NCBI GenBank assembly: GCA_017553325.1
Contig: JAFZMH010000007.1
Coordinates: 32,751-96,750 of the forward strand
Direction of reading: 5' to 3'
Length of the DNA stretch: 64,000 bases
Source: Clostridia bacterium
GTDB taxonomy: Bacteria; Bacillota; Clostridia; Christensenellales; CAG-917
Shown here one piece after another: positions 5,418-56,629 of this stretch (position 1 is its first letter; every line of letters starts with the position of its first letter). The notes under the pieces are model-generated. The model was not told the DNA's origin and searched no databases. It saw nothing but the letters and a program-made list of their open reading frames with translations. A program made the translations under genes and the position numbers.

Positions 5418-6393
5418 TTTCTGTTTCCTCCTGTTTATTAGGGTATAGCGGATGTTTTGTTTCATATCCGCACTTTGAACAATGATACTTCATCTCGTAA
5501 TAAACAAAATCGTGTGGTTCTTCAAAATATGATCCACATACATTGCACGTTCCAATGTGTGTAATTGGATTGATTGTGTATGTATTAGCATAATGCTGAC
5601 CATATATCGTTTGACTGCATACGCTACACGTATGCCAATGATACGTATTGCTGGATGAGTATGCTCCAAAAGTATGATTGTTTGTTATAAGACTTCTTCC
5701 GCAATAATAACAACCATATGTATGCGTATAGTCATTATATGAAATCAAGCACGTTGAAGTATGATTTGAATTGTGCCTATAAACACAAACGAAATCTCCT
5801 GGATAACTCAGCAGTTTATCTCCAATAGCAGGGGTATAAAAAGGATGATGTACTAAGTCTGATTCAACTATTTGTCCTTTTCCCCATTTGGATTTTATTC
5901 GAACAGACGTTGTTGTGCTACCTGTCTGAACAACCATTGCCGAATGCTTGATTTCATTGTCAAATATATATGTTGTGTCACTATATTTATATAAAATAAT
6001 ATCTCCAACTTGCAAATTACTTGCGATAGTATCAGTTAGGTATTCATCACTGTAAATGATGCTATAACAAGTATTTGACGGATTCCCCACATATGGGGTA
6101 GGATCGTTGATATTGAACTGAGTCTCAGCTATATACGCATATAAATCGCCTTGATAGTACCACGCAAAAGTATGGCAATTGAACGTATCGGTAGCAATAT
6201 CAACCAAAAGTGTTGCACCCGTATAGTTGCTTATATTATAGCTATATCCATCGGTCCCAGTGCCGTATTCGATTTCTATTTGAATTCCAGCAGGAGTATA
6301 AATATAATAACTGGAAGATGATGTTACAGCCATCTGTGACCCATATAGAATTGTTGCAGGTATTATAAGACTAAGTAACAGTTTTTGAATCAT
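5401..6393 (-). CDS. Secreted protein: putative papain-fold Cys/His amidase-like N-domain plus four H-C-x2-C-H zinc-knuckle-like repeats
   Basis: 330 aa with an N-terminal hydrophobic signal. Candidate Cys (FNCHTFAW) and His (IKHSAMVV) dyad. C-terminus has HTYGCYYCGRSLITNNH, HTCSVCSQTIYGQH, HIGTCNVCGSYFEEPH, HCSKCGYETKH. Very AT-rich coding sequence and no strong SD. The stop overlaps the downstream SBP start by 17 nt. Confidence 0.6.
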   Translation of the reverse strand: MIQKLLLSLIIPATILYGSQMAVTSSSSYYIYTPAGIQIEIEYGTGTDGYSYNISNYTGATLLVDIATDTFNCHTFAWYYQGDLYAYIAETQFNINDPTPYVGNPSNTCYSIIYSDEYLTDTIASNLQVGDIILYKYSDTTYIFDNEIKHSAMVVQTGSTTTSVRIKSKWGKGQIVESDLVHHPFYTPAIGDKLLSYPGDFVCVYRHNSNHTSTCLISYNDYTHTYGCYYCGRSLITNNHTFGAYSSSNTYHWHTCSVCSQTIYGQHYANTYTINPITHIGTCNVCGSYFEEPHDFVYYEMKYHCSKCGYETKHPLYPNKQEETENEKIA

Positions 6394-13304: not shown

Positions 13305-14168
13305 ATGGATTATCAATGGTTGTTTGACCGTCCCATCGCGCATCGCGGACTTCACAATGAAGAACTTCCCGAAAACAGTATTCCGGCGTTTCAAAACGCT
13401 ATCGACCACGATTTCAATATTGAAATCGACGTCCACCTCACAAAAGACGGACGTCTCGTCGTATTTCACGACGACAATTTGAAACGTATCTGCGGAGTTG
13501 ACAAACTCGTCAAAAACTGCACCTTGGAGGAACTTAAAACCTATCGTTTGAAGGATACGGAAAACCAAATCCCGACCTTTGACGAGTTCCTCGACCTCGT
13601 CAACGACCAAGTGGGTATTCTCTGCGAAATCAAGGGTATCAACCCCTTTAAACACGATATTGCAAGGGCGACAATCGAGCGTCTTAAAACCTACGACGGA
13701 AGAATCGCGCTTCAAGCCTTCAATTTCGGCGACGTCGCCTATGCTAGAAAGCGCACGGAACTCCCCGTCGGCGAACTTTGCACTTGGGTCGCTCTCGACC
13801 TTCACACCTATCGTTGGCTCCCCTGCAACTTTATGGGCAAACTTTGGGTGAACAAATACACGAAGCCCGATTTCATCTCCTACGACGTAAGAGGCACGCT
13901 GACCGATTATACGACTTCGAAAGGCAAGCACAGAACGCACAGAGCCAACGACTATATCGTCAAATGGTCAAAGCGTTTGCCCGTCATCTTTTGGACTGTG
14001 GACAGCGACGAAAACGTCGAACAGGCAAAGCGCTACGCCAGCAACATCATCTTTGAAAAAATCGGCGCGGAAAAGGCGAACGAGGCTTTCAAAGACTTGC
14101 AGCCTTTCACTTGCGAAGAGTCCGCTCTGCCCAAAAACTTCGAGCGAAAAGAACTTAAACCGTTGTGA
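13305..14168 (+). CDS. Glycerophosphodiester phosphodiesterase family protein
   Basis: Start trimmed to ATG 13305 (RBS AAAGGGTGA). IAHRGLHNEELPENSIPAF and IEIDVHLTKDGRLVVFHD GDPD motifs. Confidence 0.8.
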   Translation: MDYQWLFDRPIAHRGLHNEELPENSIPAFQNAIDHDFNIEIDVHLTKDGRLVVFHDDNLKRICGVDKLVKNCTLEELKTYRLKDTENQIPTFDEFLDLVNDQVGILCEIKGINPFKHDIARATIERLKTYDGRIALQAFNFGDVAYARKRTELPVGELCTWVALDLHTYRWLPCNFMGKLWVNKYTKPDFISYDVRGTLTDYTTSKGKHRTHRANDYIVKWSKRLPVIFWTVDSDENVEQAKRYASNIIFEKIGAEKANEAFKDLQPFTCEESALPKNFERKELKPL

Positions 14169-22833: not shown

Positions 22834-22912
22834 ACATTCACAATATTTATTAAATATTTAAGATATTTTAAAATTCAACTCTACCGGATTAAACTTAATT
22901 AATTATTTGGGT

Positions 22913-22973
22913 GCGATTGTTTGTATGAGTTTCGAGGCAGAATGCTCTAACAAAGAAAACCGCCAAACAGCGC
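22913..22973 (+). repeat. AYGAG-core structured intergenic element, copy A (short form)
   Basis: Closing helix tgtttg (22918-23) / caaaca (22964-69), extended by gcg/cgc. Core ATGAG-TTTC-GAGGCAG-[gca gaa tgc hairpin]-CTCTAACAAA-GAAA-ACCGC. Ends 3 nt before the ftsY stop codon (22976-78). Confidence 0.75.
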
Positions 22974-22975
22974 GC

Positions 22976-23869
22976 TCAAAGCAATGCGTTAATGAAATCC
23001 GTCGCGTCAAACGGAATTAAATCATCAATTTTCTCGCCAACACCTACGTATACGACGGGAAGCCCAATCTCGTCGCTGATTGCAAGCACGACGCCGCCCT
23101 TTGCGGTTCCGTCGAGTTTTGTGAGGATAATGCCGTCCGTTTCAATGTCTTCCGAGAAGATTTGCGCCTGCGACACCGCGTTTTGTCCCGTCGTGGCGTC
23201 GAGCACGAGATACTTCCTGAAATCTGCCTCGGGCAATTCTCTGTCCACGACGCGACAAATCTTTTGAAGTTCCGCCATAAGGTTCTTCTTGTTGTGAAGT
23301 CTGCCTGCGGTGTCCACCAAAATCACGTCGTTTCCTCTCGCCTTTGCGCTGGATATTGCGTCGAATACGACAGCCGCGGGGTCCGCGCCCTCGTTGTGGC
23401 GTATAACTCTGACGCCCGCTCGCTCGCCCCAAACTTCAAGCTGTTCGCTTGCAGCCGCTCTAAACGTGTCCGCGGCAGCCACGACGACGCTCTTGCCCTG
23501 CTCTTTGAACATGTGTGCAAGTTTGCCGACAGCCGTAGTCTTGCCCACGCCGTTGACGCCGGACAGGAGTATAACGAGCGGATATTCGTATTCCGGCACG
23601 TCGTAGTCGATGTCCTCAATCATGATTTTGCGGAGCAATTCTTTTGCGTCTTCCGGCTTTTTTATCTTCTCCTTGAAGGCTCTGTCTTTGAGTTCCTCGA
23701 TGAGGTTTTCAGTCGCCGTAAGCCCGACGTCCGCCGTCAAAAGTGCTTCCTCTAAACTCTCGTAAAACTCGTCGTCAAGTTCGCGAGCGGAAAATGCAAA
23801 GAACAACTTTTTTGAAAAAGCGTCCTTCGTCTTTTTTATACCTTCTGCAATTTTTTTGAAAAAACCCAT
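22976..23869 (-). CDS. ftsY: Signal recognition particle receptor FtsY
   Basis: 297 aa. GVNGVGKTT, DTAGR, TKLDG SRP-GTPase motifs. Confidence 0.96.
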   Translation of the reverse strand: MGFFKKIAEGIKKTKDAFSKKLFFAFSARELDDEFYESLEEALLTADVGLTATENLIEELKDRAFKEKIKKPEDAKELLRKIMIEDIDYDVPEYEYPLVILLSGVNGVGKTTAVGKLAHMFKEQGKSVVVAAADTFRAAASEQLEVWGERAGVRVIRHNEGADPAAVVFDAISSAKARGNDVILVDTAGRLHNKKNLMAELQKICRVVDRELPEADFRKYLVLDATTGQNAVSQAQIFSEDIETDGIILTKLDGTAKGGVVLAISDEIGLPVVYVGVGEKIDDLIPFDATDFINALL

Positions 23870-31942: not shown

Positions 31943-32208
31943 GCTGTGCTAGACGGGGAGCTTGCGGTGCCCTGTAAACTACAATCCGCAATAGTAGTGT
32001 CGAACGCCAATCGAGGCTTTTGTTATGGTTGGTTGCGCATAGCAAGGAGTGATGATAGCAAGGTCCCGTGCAATGTCATACTGCGAACCGTGTCAGAGCT
32101 TGACCGCAGCAGCACTAAACAGGCGTTGGCGTGTGCCACGGGGAAACTTTGAAGGAGCCGCCTACTATGTTTCCACTTCGGTTTCAAACGTCGGAGTTGG
32201 TGCACAGT
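31943..32208 (+). ncRNA. ffs: Signal recognition particle RNA, large Bacillus-type (scRNA with Alu domain)
   Basis: The 5' GTGCTAGACGGGGAGCTTGCGGTGCCCTGTAAACTACAATCCGC matches the B. subtilis scRNA Alu-domain start (GUGCUAGACGGGGAGGUAGCGGUGCCCUGUACCUGCAAUCCGC). The S-domain block is GAACCGTGTCAGAGCTTGACCGCAGCAGCAC, then GTGCCACGGGG. The 3' GGTGCACAG pairs with the 5' CTGTGC. Confidence 0.85.
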
Positions 32209-32212
32209 ATTG

Positions 32213-32250
32213 CAAAGCGTATCGGCAAAATGCTGATACGCTTTGTAATT
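32213..32250 (+). terminator. SRP RNA terminator hairpin
   Basis: aaagcgtatc (32214-23) / gatacgcttt (32235-44), then gtaatt. The U-tail is weak. Confidence 0.55.
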
Positions 32251-32288: not shown

Positions 32289-32382
32289 AAACCACGCTGC
32301 TGCGGACGCGAACCATTGTTCGCCCCGTTTTTTATATTAAACGAGCGATATCCTATGCGGAATATTTTGAAATAGTGGCGTA

Positions 32383-32424
32383 GTTTCCCACTTCGGTTTC
32401 AAATGTCAGAGTTGGTGCACAGTA
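32383..32424 (+). repeat. Direct partial copy (42 nt) of the SRP RNA 3' end
   Basis: gtttcccacttcggtttcaaatgtcagagttggtgcacagta versus the gene copy gtttccacttcggtttcaaacgtcggagttggtgcacagta. There are 3 differences including 1 indel. Confidence 0.85.
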
Positions 32425-32427
32425 AAA

Positions 32428-32465
32428 CAAATCACACTGGGTTTACTCGGTGTGATTTGCTTTTT
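32428..32465 (+). terminator. Hairpin plus T-run after SRP 3' copy 2
   Basis: caaatcacac / gtgtgatttg (10 bp), loop tgggtttactcg, then cttttt. Confidence 0.65.
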
Positions 32466-32544: not shown

Positions 32545-32628
32545 CCACGGGGAAACTTTGAAGGAGCCACCTACTATGTTCCCGCTTCGGTTTCAAACGT
32601 CAGAGTTGGTGCACAGTATTGCAAAGCG
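32545..32628 (+). repeat. Direct partial copy (84 nt) of the SRP RNA 3' end
   Basis: 4 mismatches to 32136-32219. Includes the last 73 nt of the RNA plus the first nucleotides of the terminator (attgcaaagcg). Confidence 0.9.
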
Positions 32629-32660
32629 CATTGGGTTTTTCTCGATGCGTTTTGTAATTT
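32623..32660 (+). terminator. Hairpin after SRP 3' copy 3
   Basis: aaagcgcat / atgcgtttt (one G-T pair). The loop tgggtttttctcg is nearly identical to the loop of the 32428-32465 hairpin. Confidence 0.55.
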
Positions 32661-42369: not shown

Positions 42370-42440
42370 GCTAAATGAATTATACTATTTAACAACAAAT
42401 GAGCGCGATATTTGGATGAAGAGCGCAAATAATAATGTTT

Positions 42441-42563
42441 AAAACCGCTCGGGAGTGATGAGATGCTAGGAAGGACGCTTTGTTTGAAAAGAGCGTACTT
42501 TTGCGTACGTGATTGCACTAAAAAAGCGACCTAACAACGCAGGTCGCTCTCTCGTGCGGTTTT
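42441..42563 (+). repeat. AYGAG-core structured intergenic element, copy E (long form)
   Basis: Closing helix aaaaccgc-t-cgggag (42441-55) / ctctcg-t-gcggtttt (42549-63). Core ATGAG-ATGC-TAGGAAG. Outer helix ggacgcttt/aaagcgacc. Apical hairpin gcgtac-ttttgc-gtacgt. 3' core CTAACAAC-GCAG-GTCGC. The 3' arm overlaps the stop codon (42562-64) of the reductase gene. Confidence 0.8.
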
Positions 42564-44670
42564 ATTTAATCTTGTGGATGGCAACGTCATACGCCGCTCT
42601 AGTAGCATCCGCAATACGCCCTATCTTGCTTGCGTCGCCCACGACGAAGAGTCTTTCAAACTTGCCATCAAACTCTTTTGCGAGATTGTTGACGGGACGT
42701 GCGCCAAGCGACAGCACCACTGCGTCGAAATCATAGTGCTCGGGTGCGCCTGTGGACACCGGCTTTCTGTTCTTGTCAAGTTTGACGGGTTCAAGCACTA
42801 CGCCTGTCTCATCAATCGAGTTGAGTTTGTGAGAAAGAATATATTCCGTCCCCTTCGCGTTGAGTTTGGGGAGAACGTCGTCGAGGTGCTGGAACCAAGT
42901 GCCGGGGGCGACTCTGTCCGCCATTTCGACGATTGTCACCTTGTTGCCGTATTCGACGAGCATTTCGGCGGTTTCAAGTCCCGTCATACCCGAGCCGATA
43001 AGAGCGACGTTTTTGTTTTCGAGATACTTTTCACCGCTCAAAATCTGCGTCGTCGTGTAGACGTTTTCGCGGTTGACGCCCTCGATTGAACGCGGACGCA
43101 CTGCGCACGCGCCGGTTGCAATGATGACTGCGTACGGGTTGAGCGCTTGTACGGTTTCAAGGTCCGCCTTTACGCCGAGACGAATTTCCGCGCCGACTTT
43201 TTCCGCATTGGTCTTCATATCGACGAAGCACCAGCCGAGTTTCTCCTTCTTTGGCGGTTTGTTGGCGAGTTGAATTTGTCCGCCGACTTCCTTTGCCTGT
43301 TCGAGAACGATAGGTTTGAACCCGCGTCTACCAAGCATTTCCGCCGCCGTGAGACCCGCAACGCCTGCGCCTACGACGACGACAGTTCTGCCCTCGCCGT
43401 CCTTGACGAGATTGTCAAATTCTCTTTCGCGCCCGACAGTCGGGTTGACGGAGCAATAGCCGTGGTCGCCGTGATAGGCGTTGTCCTGCATGGATTGTAT
43501 GCAGTAGAGACAGCAGATGCAACGCTTGATTTCGTCCTCTCTGCCCTCTTGCGCCTTTTCCGCCCAGTGCGGGTCAGCGATGTGCGGACGCCCGAGCGAC
43601 ACGAAGTCTTGTACGCCCTCTTCAAGTTGTTTTTCCGCTTGTTCGGGAGTTCTTATGAGGTTAGCGGCTATGACCGGAATGTTCACTTCCTTCTTGACCG
43701 CCGCCGCGAGATACTTTCTCCAGCCGCATTCAAAACTCGTTGGCTCTAGCCAATAGTTGAACGTGTCGTAGCTTGCGGACGAGACGTCAATTGCGTCCAC
43801 GCCCATATCGGCGATTGCCTTCGCATATTTGACGCCCTCTTCCATCGTGTAGCCTTTGCCGAGTTTGCCTATCTTCTCGTAGAATTCGTCAATGGTGAGA
43901 CGGACGACGATTGGATAATCTCCGCATTCCTTTCTTATGCCCTCGATGATTTCGCGCACGAACCGCAAGCGGTTTTCAAAACTTCCGCCGTATTCGTCAT
44001 TTCTGTGGTTTGTATTCGGGCTCAAAAATTGTTGGATGAGGTAGCCGTGCGTGCCGTGGAGTTCAACGCCGTCCACGCCTGCTTTTTTGCAGCGCACCGC
44101 ACCGTCTATATACTGTTGAATGAGTTGTTTGACTTCCTTGTGAGAGAGCGCTCTGACCGCGGTGTTCGCATAATATGCGGGTTCGCAAGCGGAGGCGGAG
44201 ACAGCCTTCTTGGAAATGTGATGCTTCTCAAGGAATGGCGCGAGTTTCGGAGCCATACTGAACAGCATCTTCGGGAACTTCTTGCAAATTCTCGTGCACG
44301 CGATGCAGAGAGGCACGGTGCCGATTGCAAGACCGACGTTTTGACGGCCCGGGTGATGCAGTTGCACGAAGAGTTTTGCGCCGTGTCTGTGAATACGATT
44401 TGCAAATTCCGTTAGTCCCGGTATTTGATAATCGTGGCTCACGCCGAGTTGCGCAAACGCCGCCGCGCCCGTCTTGTCGTTGATACGGGTAATCTCGGTC
44501 ATGATGAGTCCCGTTCCGCCCTTCGCGCGCTCCTCATAGTAGTCCATGAGTTGCTCGGTTGTGCATCCGTCGAATTGTCCGAAGCCCATGAGCATCGGGG
44601 ACATAACTATACGGTTTTTGATCTCGCAGTTGCCTATTTTCATAGGACTGAACAACATTTTGTATTCCAT
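42562..44670 (-). CDS. OYE-type FMN domain fused to FAD/NAD(P) oxidoreductase (2-enoate reductase / 2,4-dienoyl-CoA reductase family)
   Basis: Start trimmed to ATG 44670 (MEYKMLFSPMKIGN). LHHPGRQ, Fe-S motif CICCLYC...C, Rossmann VVVVGAGVAGLTAAE and ALIGSGMTGLE. Confidence 0.8.
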   Translation of the reverse strand: MEYKMLFSPMKIGNCEIKNRIVMSPMLMGFGQFDGCTTEQLMDYYEERAKGGTGLIMTEITRINDKTGAAAFAQLGVSHDYQIPGLTEFANRIHRHGAKLFVQLHHPGRQNVGLAIGTVPLCIACTRICKKFPKMLFSMAPKLAPFLEKHHISKKAVSASACEPAYYANTAVRALSHKEVKQLIQQYIDGAVRCKKAGVDGVELHGTHGYLIQQFLSPNTNHRNDEYGGSFENRLRFVREIIEGIRKECGDYPIVVRLTIDEFYEKIGKLGKGYTMEEGVKYAKAIADMGVDAIDVSSASYDTFNYWLEPTSFECGWRKYLAAAVKKEVNIPVIAANLIRTPEQAEKQLEEGVQDFVSLGRPHIADPHWAEKAQEGREDEIKRCICCLYCIQSMQDNAYHGDHGYCSVNPTVGREREFDNLVKDGEGRTVVVVGAGVAGLTAAEMLGRRGFKPIVLEQAKEVGGQIQLANKPPKKEKLGWCFVDMKTNAEKVGAEIRLGVKADLETVQALNPYAVIIATGACAVRPRSIEGVNRENVYTTTQILSGEKYLENKNVALIGSGMTGLETAEMLVEYGNKVTIVEMADRVAPGTWFQHLDDVLPKLNAKGTEYILSHKLNSIDETGVVLEPVKLDKNRKPVSTGAPEHYDFDAVVLSLGARPVNNLAKEFDGKFERLFVVGDASKIGRIADATRAAYDVAIHKIK

Positions 44671-44756
44671 AATTCTCCCCAAATTATTTTTTTAATACGT
44701 AAATATTTTAGCACTTTGAAATAGATATTTCAAGAGGGGTATAGCATTTTTTGTAA

Positions 44757-44780
44757 GAAAAAAAGGCACTTATGTGCCTT
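44757..44780 (-). terminator. Rho-independent terminator downstream of folD and element D
   Basis: On the minus strand: aaggcac-ataa-gtgcctt followed by T7. Confidence 0.8.
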
Positions 44781-44803
44781 CTATGGTTGCATTTTGTTAA
44801 AAT

Positions 44804-44918
44804 CGTTTGATTTGGACGAGATGAGAGAAAGCGTGCTTTTTGCGAAAGCTAAGTGTACAAAGGCGTACGCGGTGCTTGAGAACAAAGTGCGCTGACAAAG
44901 CAGTCGCTAAATCAAGCG
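44804..44918 (+). repeat. AYGAG-core structured intergenic element, copy D (long form)
   Basis: 12-bp closing helix cgtttgatttgg (44804-15) / ctaaatcaagcg (44907-18, two G-T pairs). Core ACGAG-ATGA-GAGAAAG. Outer helix agcgtgcttt/aaagtgcgct. Apical hairpin gtgtac-aaaggc-gtacgc. 3' core CTGACAAA-GCAG-TCGC. The 3' arm is the folD stop codon plus its last three codons. Confidence 0.8.
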
Positions 44919-45764
44919 ATTTTGGATTTTATAAGCCTTAACCGTGTTTTGAAGGAGCATAGTCACCGTCATAGGACCTACGCCACCCGGGACGGGGGTT
45001 ATATAACTGCACTTTGGCGCGACGTTTTCAAAATCAACGTCTCCGCAGAGTTTGCCGTTTTCGTCTCTGTCCATGCCGACGTCCACGACGACTGCGCCCT
45101 CTTTGACCATATCGGCTTTGAGGAATTTCGCCTTGCCGATTGCCACGCAAACTATGTCAGCCTGACGGGTGATTTCGCCGAGGTTTTTCGTGCGACTGTG
45201 GCAAATCGTCACCGTTGCGTTTTTGTCGAGAAGAAGTTGAGCAAGAGGTTTGCCGACGAGGTTGGAGCGTCCCACCACGACAGCGTTTTTGCCTTCAAGT
45301 TCGATATTGTAGTGCTCAAGTATGCGCATAATGCCAAACGGCGTGCAAGCGATTAGGCACTCGCGTCCCGTCCAAAGTCTGCCCTTTTGCACGTAGTGGC
45401 AACCGTCGACGTCCTTTGCGGGGTCGATGAGGTCGAGAAGCGGGTTTTCGTCGAGATGCTTAGGGAGCGGAAGTTGCAAGATTATGCCGGAAACCTCAGG
45501 GTTCTCGTTTAAAGACTTTATCGTCTCAGCGACTTGCTCTGCCGTGCTGTCTCCCGGGAGCGTGCACATAAACGACTTGACGCCGACTTCTTCGCATCCT
45601 TTCATTTTGTTGCGCACGTACACGAGCGACGCGGGGTTGTCGCCGACGAGAATAACCGCAAGCCCTACGGGCTTGTCAAGGTTCATAGCCTTGATTTCAT
45701 CGACTTCTGCTTTGATATTTTGTCTCGTCACGCTTGCAACGAGTTTTCCGTCTAGAATTGTCAT
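44907..45764 (-). CDS. folD: Bifunctional methylenetetrahydrofolate dehydrogenase/cyclohydrolase
   Basis: 285 aa. ILVGDNPAS.VYV, GIILQLPLP, VVVGRSNLVGKP, PVPGGVGPMT motifs. Confidence 0.95.
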   Translation of the reverse strand: MTILDGKLVASVTRQNIKAEVDEIKAMNLDKPVGLAVILVGDNPASLVYVRNKMKGCEEVGVKSFMCTLPGDSTAEQVAETIKSLNENPEVSGIILQLPLPKHLDENPLLDLIDPAKDVDGCHYVQKGRLWTGRECLIACTPFGIMRILEHYNIELEGKNAVVVGRSNLVGKPLAQLLLDKNATVTICHSRTKNLGEITRQADIVCVAIGKAKFLKADMVKEGAVVVDVGMDRDENGKLCGDVDFENVAPKCSYITPVPGGVGPMTVTMLLQNTVKAYKIQNRLI

Positions 45765-50767: not shown

Positions 50768-50801
50768 TTCTGTCTCCTAATGTTGTTTTCTAAAATCCTG
50801 A

Positions 50802-50907
50802 TTATTTGTATGAGTTGCAAGGAACCGTGCTTTTGACCGCAATGAGCGTACTAAGCCGTACGTGATTTGTGGGCAAAAGTGCGTTGACACAGCAAATCGC
50901 CAAATAA
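50802..50907 (+). repeat. AYGAG-core structured intergenic element, copy C (long form)
   Basis: Closing helix ttatttg (50802-08) / caaataa (50901-07). Core ATGAG-TTGC-AAGGAAC. Outer helix cgtgcttttg (50826-35) / caaaagtgcg (50874-83) with tandem G-T pairs. Apical hairpin gcgtac-taagcc-gtacgt. 3' core TTGACACA-GCAA-ATCGC. Lies between the pta stop (50917) and the ackA RBS. Confidence 0.8.
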
Positions 50908-50916
50908 AATAGCACG

Positions 50917-51915
50917 TTATTTAACTGACTGAAGTGCTGTTATGGCCGCTACAGCCGCTATATCTTCCGCAACACAACCACGGCTTAAATCGTTGACCGG
51001 AAGTGCAAGACCTTGCATAATCGGTCCGATTGCCATGCAGTTGCCAAAGCGTTGGGCAAGTTTGTAGCCGATGTTGCCTGCGTCGAGGTTCGGGAATACG
51101 AGGACGTTTGCTTGTCCTGCGACGGGGCTGTCGCCCGCTTTTTGCTTTGCTACGCTGTCAACCAAGGACGCGTCGAGTTGAAGTTCGCCGTCCACGCAGA
51201 TTTCCGGATGTTGTTCGCGTACCTTGTTGTAGGCGGAACGAACCTTCTCGACAGATTCGTGATTTGCGCTTCCCTTCGTGGAGAACGAGAGCATTGCAAT
51301 CTTCGGCTCCATCTCGCAGATCTTCTTCGCGGAGTCCGCCGCGGCAACGACTATGTCTTTGAGTTGGTCGTCCGTCGGGTACGGAATGACCGCGCAATCG
51401 GAGAAAATGTATGCCGGATACTTCTTGTATTTGAATTCCTCGGGAGGAACCATAACGAAGCAACTGGAAACCGAACTGATGCCGGGAGCCGCCTTTACGA
51501 CTTGGAATGCCGCACGGGAGACGTCTGCGGAACTGAATACCGCGCCGCCCACGACGCCGTCTACGTCACCGCGCTTCAAAGCGACGCACGCAAAGAACAT
51601 ATTGTTTTGGGTGACGAGTTGTCTCGCCTGCTCTTCCGTCATGCCCTTCGCTTTGCGAAGTTCAAACAAAGTGTTTGCATATTCGTCGACGTGTTTGCTC
51701 GTCTTCGGATCGTCAAAAGCAACGCCCGTCAAATCGACTTCCGGGAATTTTGCCTTGATTTCCTCTTCGTTGCCGATGAGAACGACTTTGCAGACGCCTT
51801 TCTTTGTGAGGATTTCCGCTGCCTTTGCGGCTCTTACGTCAAATCCTTCCGCGAGTGCGATGGTCTTGCCGAGTAAACTTGCTCTTTTCATAAGGTTTTC
51901 AACAAATTCTGTCAT
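50917..51915 (-). CDS. pta: Phosphate acetyltransferase
   Basis: Start trimmed to ATG 51915 (MTEFVENLMKRA). 332 aa PTA_PTB domain (ALAEGFDVRAAKAA, GGAVFSSADVSR, SFSTKGSA). Confidence 0.93.
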   Translation of the reverse strand: MTEFVENLMKRASLLGKTIALAEGFDVRAAKAAEILTKKGVCKVVLIGNEEEIKAKFPEVDLTGVAFDDPKTSKHVDEYANTLFELRKAKGMTEEQARQLVTQNNMFFACVALKRGDVDGVVGGAVFSSADVSRAAFQVVKAAPGISSVSSCFVMVPPEEFKYKKYPAYIFSDCAVIPYPTDDQLKDIVVAAADSAKKICEMEPKIAMLSFSTKGSANHESVEKVRSAYNKVREQHPEICVDGELQLDASLVDSVAKQKAGDSPVAGQANVLVFPNLDAGNIGYKLAQRFGNCMAIGPIMQGLALPVNDLSRGCVAEDIAAVAAITALQSVK

Positions 51916-55653: not shown

Positions 55654-55701
55654 TTTTTACCATTTTTTTATCTAATCTATTTTTATATTAAACCCACAAA
55701 A

Positions 55702-55773
55702 CTGCTTGATTGAGATGAGTTTCGAGGAAGGTGCGCACGCAAACCTGACAAGGAAAACCGCTCAATCAAACTG
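55702..55773 (+). repeat. AYGAG-core structured intergenic element, copy B (short form)
   Basis: 9-bp closing helix ttgattgag (55706-14) / ctcaatcaa (55761-69). Core ATGAG-TTTC-GAGGAAG-[aggt...acct hairpin]-CTGACAAG-GAAA-ACCGC. The 3' arm contains the methyltransferase stop codon (55766-68). Confidence 0.78.
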
Positions 55774-56629
55774 TTTTGAACGTAGCAAAGGCAGTGCAAC
55801 CCTGCGGAAGAATCAGTCCTTCTTCAGTCTGTAAACCGATTTCGTCCGCGTCAATAACCGCGTTATTCGGCAAGGCGAGTTTCAATATGTTTGCCATAAC
55901 CGTAGGTTGCAGTCCCGTCGTATAACTGTTGAGGCACACGAACAGCGGATTGTCGCCAAGAAGCGATGATACAAGATTCATAAGTTCGCTTATTCCCTCT
56001 TCGATCTTCCACTTTTCACCGTTTGGACCTCTGCCGAAGGAGGGCGGGTCGAGGATTATCGCGTCGTAGTGTTTGCCACGTCTGATTTCTCTTTGGCAGA
56101 ATTTGAAGCAGTCGTCGACGATATATCTCATCTCTCTGTCTTCAAGTCCCGACAACCTGACGTTTTCGCCCGCGCGCTCGACCATCGCCTTCGCGCTGTC
56201 AACGTGGCACACGCTCGCACCCGCTTTAAGGCAGGCGACGGACGCCGCGCCCGTATAGCCGAACAGGTTGAGGACGCTGATTTTACGCCCCGCGGTTTCA
56301 ATGAGTTTCATCATTCTGTCCCAGTTGACAGCCTGCTCGGGGAAAAGTCCCGTATGTTTGAACCCCATGAGTTTGAGGGAGAACGTAAGGTCGCGCCAGC
56401 CGAGTTTAAACTCCGTATTGATGGGTTTTTGCCATTTCCACGCGCCACCGCCGGAAGAGCTGCGTTCGTACACCGCCGAGATGTTTTTGTTGCTTCTCAG
56501 CGGAGTTTTTGCGTGCCAAATTACCTGCGGGTCGGGACGCAGTAAAACGAGATCTCCCCATCTCTCGAGTTTTTCGCCGTCGCCGGTTGCGATGACGGAG
56601 TATTCTTTCCAATCGGGTGCGATTTTCAT
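55766..56629 (-). CDS. Class I SAM-dependent (rRNA large-subunit RlmI/RlmK-like) methyltransferase
   Basis: 287 aa. LNLFGYTGAASVA SAM-binding motif and ILDPPSFGRG. Confidence 0.75.
   Translation of the reverse strand: MKIAPDWKEYSVIATGDGEKLERWGDLVLLRPDPQVIWHAKTPLRSNKNISAVYERSSSGGGAWKWQKPINTEFKLGWRDLTFSLKLMGFKHTGLFPEQAVNWDRMMKLIETAGRKISVLNLFGYTGAASVACLKAGASVCHVDSAKAMVERAGENVRLSGLEDREMRYIVDDCFKFCQREIRRGKHYDAIILDPPSFGRGPNGEKWKIEEGISELMNLVSSLLGDNPLFVCLNSYTTGLQPTVMANILKLALPNNAVIDADEIGLQTEEGLILPQGCTAFATFKTV

Follow-up and report, generated by a model that had tools for sequence, protein, structure and literature searches.

A family of foldback repeats at gene ends in uncultured gut Clostridia, viewed from its copy at the 3' end of folD

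The folD 3' end and copy D

This analysis concerns the 3' end of folD in a 64,000-nucleotide stretch of contig JAFZMH010000007.1 from a Clostridia bacterium (the window), and an element at this gene end that we call copy D. Copy D is a member of an undescribed family of foldback repeats of about 120 bases from uncultured gut Clostridia. It is described here on the plus strand, which is the folded strand and antisense to folD (Table 1). The gene ends with the codons CAA AAT CGC TTG ATT TAG. Beyond copy D the minus strand carries a canonical intrinsic terminator and a promoter-like site for the next gene, which encodes a reductase, and the position of both places the element within the folD 3' untranslated region (UTR). 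An earlier note on this DNA, made from the sequence alone, had likewise put copy D between the folD stop codon and its real terminator, of which the stem (44782-44761) and the T run were found on the minus strand. The orthologous element in a related locus (L159) has the same terminator behind it.

The closing helix P1 of copy D consists of 19 base pairs (44797-44815 with 44907-44925), including four G.T pairs, and spans the folD stop codon and 5 1/3 codons. Read in the sense direction, its 5' arm is a near copy of the folD tail AAAATCGCTTGATTTAG. The earlier note had recognized the 3' arm 44907-44918 (ctaaatcaagcg) as the reverse complement of the folD end ...AAT CGC TTG ATT TAG, which is correct, and had paired it over 12 bp with 44804-44815 (cgtttgatttgg); these pairs, with G.T at 44806/44916 and 44814/44908, are present, but the true helix is longer. 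As a control for chance complementarity, the last 17 nt of 51 long ORFs (open reading frames) of the window were compared with the DNA 30-220 nt downstream. On the antisense strand folD reached 17/17 pairs and the other 50 genes at most 13/17, and on the sense strand folD was again the best of the 51, with 15/17. Within the window the proposal that the closing helix was built with folD codons thus stood far above chance complementarity.

Covariance-model matches to copy D span 44800-44923 (R1, 115 bits; R2, 77 bits, E 3e-19). The element folds into a rod in which P1 closes three further helices and an apical hairpin. The plus strand gave -49.7 kcal/mol (z = -6.4, none of 200 shuffles equally stable) and the minus strand -28.1 kcal/mol (z = -2.4); with DNA parameters the values were -22.9 kcal/mol for the plus strand versus -18.2 kcal/mol for the minus strand. 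The apical hairpin GTGTAC/GTACGC and the core ACGAG (44816-44820) were both found as the earlier note had described them. Its statement that D shows clear compensatory changes relative to copies C and E did not hold, as these differences are one-sided wobble changes (G.U to G-C, C-G to U.G) with no double substitutions.

A conserved structure docked on stop codons

Five copies were detected in the window by a pattern search and two covariance models, all of them on the plus strand, and there is one remnant besides. C, D and E are long copies, and S1 and S2 are short ones without the apical domain. The host genes (ftsY, a flavin reductase, folD, pta and a methyltransferase) are functionally unrelated, and two of the copies are internal to operons, E in pta-ackA, 27 nt ahead of ackA, and S1 in ftsY-ylxM. 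In total the family comprised 102 copies, 90 of them unique, from 58 human-gut metagenome loci and from L005, the uncultured Clostridiales metagenome-assembled genome UMGS1366. The metagenome loci came from a strict pattern scan that returned 64 loci, from which six chance matches were discarded. Among 80 species-representative genomes with FolD 54-79% identical, only L005, the nearest but one, carried copies within 10 kb of folD. One genome that is otherwise element-free near folD (L006) has a lone match to the apical-hairpin motif, GAGCGTAC TTGAGC GTACGTGAA, at 13653-13678.

A scan of the window with Rfam 15 gave no match at the element at the gathering score, nothing above chance was found around copy D at E up to 10, and four loci with typical copies had no match at E up to 1. 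A phage or plasmid origin was rejected, as viral contigs, phage records and plasmids contained no match to the element. No description of it was located in literature searches.

The copies share one structure while their sequences differ. In the covariation alignment of 110 rows, 93.6% of the cells were paired, double changes occurred at 34 of the 41 pairs, and the covariation score was 0.563, versus 0.16 in shuffled and 0.04-0.14 in slid controls. The consensus order is P1, GAUGAAGAAC.A.AG.AA, the variable P2-P3, AA.CC.AACGUAC-N6-GUACGUGAUUU, UGACGCAGUUAUUCGC and P1'. The 5' block GCGATATTGAG-ATGAAGAAC stands opposite its reverse complement GCGCTATTGAG-CGAATAAC, each an imperfect inverted copy of the other, so that every copy is built of two inverted modules with a hairpin spacer between them. 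Within P1 the inner 8-12 nt are fairly conserved (..GATATTGAG / CTCAATAG..) and the outer 4-16 nt are site-specific, the ends being T-R-A... or AAAA..., depending on the site. A U.G pair beside a bulged A is present in 86 of 88 copies, and D, with C44817-G44906 in this place, is one of the two with C-G. The junction helix that appears conserved covaries too, as is seen in a subfamily (L087 5676-5795 and L128 5217-5340) where GUGUCAGAC ... UAUCACGC replaces GAUGAAGAAC ... GUUAUUCGC.

The antisense strand was the more stable one in 65 of 84 copies (median 4.1 kcal/mol), and the sense strand folded strongly as well, with a mean of -51.8 kcal/mol. Wobble pairs in the deep alignment, with the near-invariant U.G pair left out, were G.U in 121 cases and A.C in 49. 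Copies at least 85% identical to each other showed 19 concerted double changes, and their single changes (17 A.C, 13 G.U) were without strand bias, which weakens the wobble excess as proof of a plus-strand RNA. Several known motifs and functions were considered for the conserved parts and rejected. A likeness of AUGAG...CUGA to a hammerhead core, k-turn or C/D-box found no Rfam match, and the motif letters vary among copies. The ZTP/THF riboswitch, prompted by folD, likewise had no Rfam match, and the element is downstream of and antisense to the genes; this position, together with the incoherent set of host genes, also speaks against any riboswitch or cis-regulatory leader. A small ORF starting at the conserved AUG AAG AAC was dismissed because the place of its stops is not the same in C, D, E and L005, and because the stems show covariation.

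With its 3' end the gene-proximal copy abuts or overlaps the stop of an opposite-strand ORF. In 58 of 84 unique junctions a convergent ORF had its stop at -23 to +3 relative to the point where the covariance-model match ends on the 3' side, and the junctions outside this range were mostly inner members of tandem arrays. No stop-codon adjacency was found on the 5' side of the copies. Contact with the stop codon is hence the rule throughout the family, and D is no exception in this respect. On the folded strand the stop triplet is TTA (36) or TCA (16), usually outermost in P1 and paired to TAA or TGA at the 5' end. In about 30% of the copies the ORF enters the arm by 11-23 nt and stops at a TGA or TAG of the arm or at the TAA in CGAATAA. 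Tandem arrays of two or three dissimilar copies, spaced 3-9 nt apart, are common, and of 26 arrays that could be classified 15 are placed between convergent genes. In about half of the copies, C and D among them, the 5' foot is rich in A and the 3' foot in T, and 27 of the 58 gene-abutting copies have fewer than four T in a 10-nt window set at the P1 3' foot. Upstream of copy D no promoter-like site was seen on the plus strand, and arrays leave no room for one; an internal or upstream promoter was thus rejected.

Orientation is set by the adjacent gene. We surveyed 42 copy-bearing loci longer than 5 kb, including the window and L005; the copies within each locus share one orientation, and the GC skew of the folded strand was negative in 31 of 41. 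This skew is compatible with an orientation set by replication, as in IS200, but in locus L153 both orientations occur within 2 kb, and either copy is antisense to its adjacent gene: one, on the minus strand, abuts a plus-strand gene, and the other, 1.5 kb off and on the plus strand, abuts a minus-strand gene. Replication-set orientation was therefore rejected. The sole sense-oriented copy is also found in L153 (3125-3246), about 24 nt after the possible end of a plus-strand ORF; it is followed by TTTTTTG and then by the promoter-like site of an OGG/HhH-GPD gene, and may act as a local terminator.

Gain, loss and the coding sequence in related loci

Presence, absence and order of the copies differ between related strains. 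Single copies were present in one locus and absent from the other between flanks of 90-100% identity in four pairs (L092 vs L090, L093 vs L113, L087 vs L099 and L135 vs L148), and in the two clearest cases the extra copy lies between the stop codon and a resident copy. The same two copies stand beside the same gene in reversed order in two related strains (L138 9016-9267 vs L121 3835-4084). One locus (L118) holds a recombinant copy, and internally deleted copies also occur. In a lineage with 94% FolD identity (L149) the stops of guaB, folD and the reductase gene each have a copy on them, and in one with 93% identity (L151) all three gene ends are empty. Short tandem repeats (aattagg / cattcct units) follow the reductase gene at 6100-6290 of this element-free locus, before a terminator.

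The same gene end can be occupied by different copy types in different lineages, and the stop codon changes with the copy: empty sites read ...ATT AAA TAA, and sites filled by a TGAGCGC-type copy read ...ATA AAA TGA-GCGC or ...ATA AGA TGA-GCGCG. This type is intact at the reductase gene end in L149. In the window, copy C sits on the stop of the reductase gene and the distal half of an older TGAGCGC-type copy lies beyond it, where 42405-42421 matches the 5' module of the main family exactly (chance expectation 0.05); to judge by this arrangement, the remnant reads as pushed distally by copy C. A further remnant, of 21 nt, derives from a D orthologue in L153. A direct TTA, possibly extended to 5-7 nt, flanks two polymorphic insertions, and no duplication was seen around TGAGCGC-type copies. 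At L149 2772-3000 an element takes the place of the 13-nt guaB-folD spacer, together with AT-rich DNA of about 105 nt in which TTGAAA-17-TATAAT and a new ribosome-binding site are present, and folD of this lineage seems to have gained its own promoter after the insertion.

The helix contains inverted copies of coding sequence, and at folD the coding side is the older one. FolD tails of the clade read K-x-Q-N-x-[L/I] also in element-free relatives (L151 QNGLK*, L158 QNRI*, L155 AQNEIEV*), so the 3' arm of copy D is largely ancestral coding sequence and the suggestion of the earlier note that the 5' outer arm had been matched to it holds. For the same reason we refuted a loss of an ancestral stop (TAA to CAA) that would have extended folD into the arm. 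The R-L-I-stop codons may have been recruited, or a small in-frame deletion may have joined the ORF to a canonical arm; the TTG shared with L151 favours recruitment. Orthologues of D were found in L156 (QNHLI*) and L159 (QNRTV*), besides the remnant in L153. Their 5' arms all retain TTGATTTAG, their interior helices are strongly divergent and P1 is similar. Three changes seen in the arms of the window and L156 are all transitions that give antisense-strand wobble pairs, and in L156 a change of CGC to CAC leaves a wobble in the helix. The coding arm of L159 has drifted (RTV*), and its helix is down to 15/18 pairs while the core is kept. Comparison of related folD ends, as proposed earlier, thus showed the element to be absent from some relatives and the core to outlast part of the helix, and within the D lineage the 5' arm does not reliably track folD.

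Such tracking was found in a second lineage. The folD genes of L005 and L101 carry a different copy with a 28-bp helix, of which the outer 15 bp are an inverted copy of the ancestral codons ATT AAA GCG TTT AAG (I K A F K), a sequence also present in the element-free L006. The two species differ by three double compensatory changes, one of them synonymous (AAA/AAG). At other genes (L106, L127, L119 and L122), 9-16 nt of coding sequence likewise stand as inverted copies in the helices, which are 25-31 bp long.

Table 1. Positions in the window of copy D, its parts, the adjoining gene and signals, and the other copies of the family.
Feature	Position	Strand	Basis or remark
folD (methylene-tetrahydrofolate dehydrogenase/cyclohydrolase)	44907..45764	-	ORF; Pfam THF_DHG_CYH + THF_DHG_CYH_C; last 19 nt inside the copy D helix
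Copy D, whole element	44797..44925	+	covariance models, fold, helix limits
Copy D closing helix P1, 5' arm TTAAAATCGTTTGATTTGG	44797..44815	+	pairs with 44907-44925
Copy D closing helix P1, 3' arm	44907..44925	+	antisense of folD TAG and codons CAA AAT CGC TTG ATT
Copy D 5' conserved module, ACGAG ATGAGAGAA	44816..44829	+	alignments; family consensus GAUGAAGAAC.A.AG.AA
Copy D variable hairpin spacer	44830..44893	+	minimum free energy (MFE) structure and covariation in its helices
Copy D helix P2	44830-44839 with 44884-44893	+	MFE structure
Copy D helix P3	44846-44849 with 44874-44877	+	MFE structure
Copy D apical hairpin GTGTAC/GTACGC	44853-44858 with 44865-44870	+	MFE structure
Copy D 3' conserved module TGACAAAGCAGTCG	44894..44906	+	family consensus UGACGCAGUUAUUCGC; imperfect inverted copy of the 5' module
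folD canonical intrinsic terminator, AGAAGGCAC ATAA GTGCCTTTT + T run	44753..44782	-	stem 44782-44761; distal to copy D
Promoter-like site TTGAAA-17-TAAAAT with TG, for the next gene (Oxidored_FMN/Pyr_redox_2 reductase)	44705..44733	-	sequence pattern; beyond copy D
Copy C	42442..42563	+	covariance models; 3' foot GCGGTTTTA contains TAA (42562-42564) of the reductase gene
Remnant of an older TGAGCGC-type copy, TGAGCGCGATATTTGG ATGAAGAGC..., internally deleted	42400..42435	+	adjoins copy C
Copy E	50794..50916	+	between pta (stop 50917-50919) and ackA (start 50767)
Short copy S1	22909..22978	+	foot contains ftsY TGA (22976-22978); ylxM downstream
Short copy S2	55699..55777	+	3' arm overlaps the last 11 nt of an S-adenosylmethionine-methyltransferase ORF (stop 55766-55768)

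Apart from the family, the window contains a large signal recognition particle (SRP) RNA at 31944-32207 (Rfam 150.8 bits), with partial direct repeats of the SRP RNA 3' end at 32351-32440 and 32545-32634 (61% and 93% identity over 90 nt vs 32136-32225), and a plus-strand lysine riboswitch at 779-945 (76.6 bits) upstream of an ORF starting at 1041.

Mobility, rival explanations and known relatives

We give about an even chance to the reading that the family is a non-autonomous, structure-dependent mobile DNA repeat which homes to stop codons. Recognition by the fold is suggested by the dissimilar copies with one fold, the gain, loss and reordering at strain level, the serial arrivals, the remnants, the unrelated hosts and the retained terminator. 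The element would move as folded single-stranded DNA, and a trans-acting, structure-specific enzyme, HUH/RAYT-like or a recombinase, would be what moves it. The two inverted modules, of about 25 nt, flank a spacer that needs only the capacity to form a hairpin. New copies would integrate exactly at the host stop codon in an orientation fixed by the gene, with the better-folding strand ending up antisense to it, and the incoming copy would supply the terminal T-R-A triplet that becomes the host stop codon. Later arrivals would use the same spot and push older copies outward, and the older ones would recombine, lose parts and decay. Any effect on the folD mRNA, such as a 3' hairpin or a decay barrier, would be secondary.

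The long inverted repeat formed by the ends of a copy would be kept complementary by template switching during replication (quasi-palindrome correction), with the helix spreading outward. Intrastrand template switching in quasi-palindromes is an established mechanism, and we infer that it extends the helix here, from the frequent concerted double changes without strand bias and from the outward growth of the helix into tolerant flank. As the gene side is held by selection, the intergenic side would be overwritten with the inverted last codons, and correction toward the gene side would leave the folD helix of the window as CAA AAT CGC TTG ATT TAG with its inverted copy. The stronger proposal, that a folded hairpin whose tip bears a stop triplet takes the place of host stops on integration, in the orientation of the gene, would be a new mode of target choice, and we regard it as unlikely. 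Recognition would then have to be tied to where the reading frame ends, by termination of translation or transcription, or else to pairing of the distal end with the last codons, as a built-in guide. If it were true, harmless colonization of the ends of essential genes would be possible because two of the three frames entering the proximal arm are closed within about eight codons, and host stop codons and C-terminal residues would be continually rewritten.

Several points weigh against a mobile repeat with this target. We know of no transposition mechanism that accounts for such stop-codon specificity. By our own estimate intergenic DNA has far more T-R-A triplets than gene ends have, so that sequence alone cannot account for it either. 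No consistent target-site duplication was found, and the gene-relative orientation in L153 argues against a simple lagging-strand coupling of the IS200/IS605 type. Transposase or recombinase domains were not seen in the small ORFs of the window, and an approximate probe for Y1-transposase had no match in 1.86 Mb. All copies are known from metagenome assemblies, and movement was not directly observed. The modest stability edge of the antisense strand, the G.U excess, the near-invariant U.G pair and the conserved internal-loop nucleotides would also fit a strand-specific role, as RNA or in protein binding.

An mRNA 3' hairpin, an antisense terminator or small RNA (sRNA), and an attC-like site are possible rival readings that fit the polymorphism and decay less well than a mobile repeat does. 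That the host uses the element in its mRNA is, in our judgement, improbable. On this view, transcription of the complement of the folded strand would give the first 120 nt of a 3' UTR or intercistronic spacer, and a rod hairpin starting from the stop codon could block 3'-to-5' exonucleases, set operon processing sites or modulate translation termination; E. coli REPs within about 15 nt of stop codons reportedly do the latter, in work by Liang and colleagues from 2015. Consistent with such a use, the copies always lie in transcribed DNA right after an ORF, in D before the real terminator and in two cases inside operons, their orientation is gene-relative, the sense strand also folds strongly and pairing is maintained over the long term. 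A tuned regulator would not, however, be expected in dissimilar tandem arrays of two or three copies with decaying remnants, and the patchy occurrence at orthologous genes between lineages of 93-94% FolD identity, the strain polymorphism, the unrelated host genes and a wobble bias that favours the opposite strand all speak against it. This last point, the better folding of the antisense strand and the near-invariant U.G pair would instead suit an RNA transcribed from the folded strand, either an sRNA family convergent with the host genes or an insulator in which P1 and the stop-derived U run GCGGUUUUA end antisense transcription before it reaches the ORF. The A-rich and T-rich feet in about half of the copies, C and D included, and the 15 of 26 classifiable arrays between convergent genes agree with it. 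We nevertheless hold this very improbable, since copy D lacks a plus-strand promoter-like site in front of it, promoters cannot fit into array spacings of 3-9 nt, nearly half of the gene-abutting copies (27/58) have fewer than four T at the 3' foot, recent substitutions show no strand bias, and termination does not need a conserved 120-nt rod. The evidence for mobility and decay weighs against it as well. The RNA reading implied by the earlier note, as antisense RNA or as 3' UTR element, is thus unproven, and the evidence leans to a mobile DNA repeat.

It is also quite improbable that the folded antisense strand serves as an attC-like recombination site, at which a structure-specific recombinase would excise, reinsert and shuffle 120-nt units at gene ends in an integron-like manner without cassettes or platform. 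In attC sites structure is conserved over sequence, the terminal domain is variable, and the informative strand is antisense to the preceding ORF and overlaps its stop. The present family resembles them in its diverse sequence with conserved structure, its size of 70-125 nt with a variable terminal domain (S1, S2), its informative strand antisense to the preceding ORF with stop-codon overlap, and in copies that are shuffled between strains and enter proximally. In addition, a GC skew that is negative in 31 of 41 loci places the folded strand on the template side of the leading strand, as is likewise reported for chromosomal integrons (PMC5371416). Membership was rejected because the core sites RYYYAAC ... 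GTTRRRY are missing at the outer stem ends, AAC/GTT occurring only about 20 nt inside the helix. Polymorphic copies have matched arms, which puts the crossover outside P1; the hosts are dispersed housekeeping genes and not cassettes, and no integrase was seen.

[quoted passage not shown] REPINs consist of two inverted modules with a hairpin-forming spacer, show compensatory changes and occur in tandem clusters (PMC3116915). This architecture of inverted end modules, hairpin spacer and compensation is present in our family, and like the RAYT-mobilized REPIN/REP sequences of Pseudomonas and Enterobacteria it is extragenic, non-autonomous, tandemly clustered and present in many copies per genome (PMC3116915). 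It differs in lacking the GTAG/CGTC heads of REPs, the ends being T-R-A... or AAAA..., in outermost helix positions that are site-specific instead of conserved, in a length of about 120 nt with conserved asymmetric internal loops, and in its gene-relative docking on stops in uncultured Clostridia; no RAYT was identified for it in the 64 kb and fragments looked at. Hairpin MITEs (ERIC, Correia/NEMIS, RUP, BOX, SPRITE) are similarly co-transcribed imperfect palindromes of about 100-150 bp that cluster, insert beside one another and in some cases have terminator-like feet (PMC10969869). Those families carry conserved inverted repeats at their termini and target-site duplications, and their sequence is uniformly conserved, whereas the stems of our element vary with compensation, consistent duplications are lacking and insertion is at stops; a 2024 review of MITEs nowhere mentions stop codons (PMC10969869).

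Integron attC sites are alike in being recognized by structure, in their length (57-141 nt) and variable terminal structure, in forming reorderable units, and in lying directly after the preceding ORF, often overlapping its stop, with the informative strand antisense. The element differs in having no R''/R' end cores (AAC/GTT only in the inner helix P1b), no platform or integrase in the 64 kb and 58 loci, dispersed housekeeping genes as hosts and the hairpin alone as mobile unit. Rickettsia palindromic elements (RPEs) are, like our element, palindromic repeats about 100-150 bp long, and both become part of protein-coding sequence while the gene stays intact. RPEs, however, lie in frame inside ORFs and are fully translated, whereas the arm of our element is read for at most eight codons, with stops supplied at the outer foot of P1 (TAA/TGA), in the inner arm (TGA/TAG) or beyond, in CGAATAA. 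IS200/IS605 elements and PATEs share hairpin-dependent recognition without a need for terminal inverted repeats, the lack of target duplication, insertion 3' of a short specific sequence on one strand, and non-random orientation. Their orientation follows replication and that of our element the adjacent gene (two orientations within 2 kb), their ends form two subterminal hairpins and those of our element one long hairpin, and the approximate probe in 1.86 Mb found no TnpA. As for intrinsic terminators, the feet of D, C and about half of the copies are rich in A and T, yet a canonical terminator stands behind D, and E is within an operon, 27 nt before ackA. An independent sRNA gene was rejected on the missing plus-strand promoter-like site before D and the tandem spacing of 3-9 nt. 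For attC sites, riboswitches, sRNA genes and IS200-type derivatives oriented by replication, the element therefore lacks the defining features that were tested.

What is most interesting here, the docking on stop codons, is a property of the family as a whole and not of copy D. If the reading as a mobile repeat is true, a clade of uncultured human-gut Clostridia carries a previously unreported foldback repeat defined by structure and not by sequence, perhaps in hundreds of copies per genome as extrapolated from five in 64 kb. For annotation, such elements mimic structured RNAs with excellent covariation and call for caution in RNA-discovery pipelines. The repeat would home to the stops of housekeeping genes, replace the stop and be able to turn the last codons into the arm of a DNA or RNA helix. 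It would thus offer a natural system for target choice by hairpin elements, for the spread of palindromes into coding DNA, and for insertions that reshape 3' UTRs, operon junctions and C-termini, of which the new guaB-folD promoter that one lineage seems to have gained would be an example.

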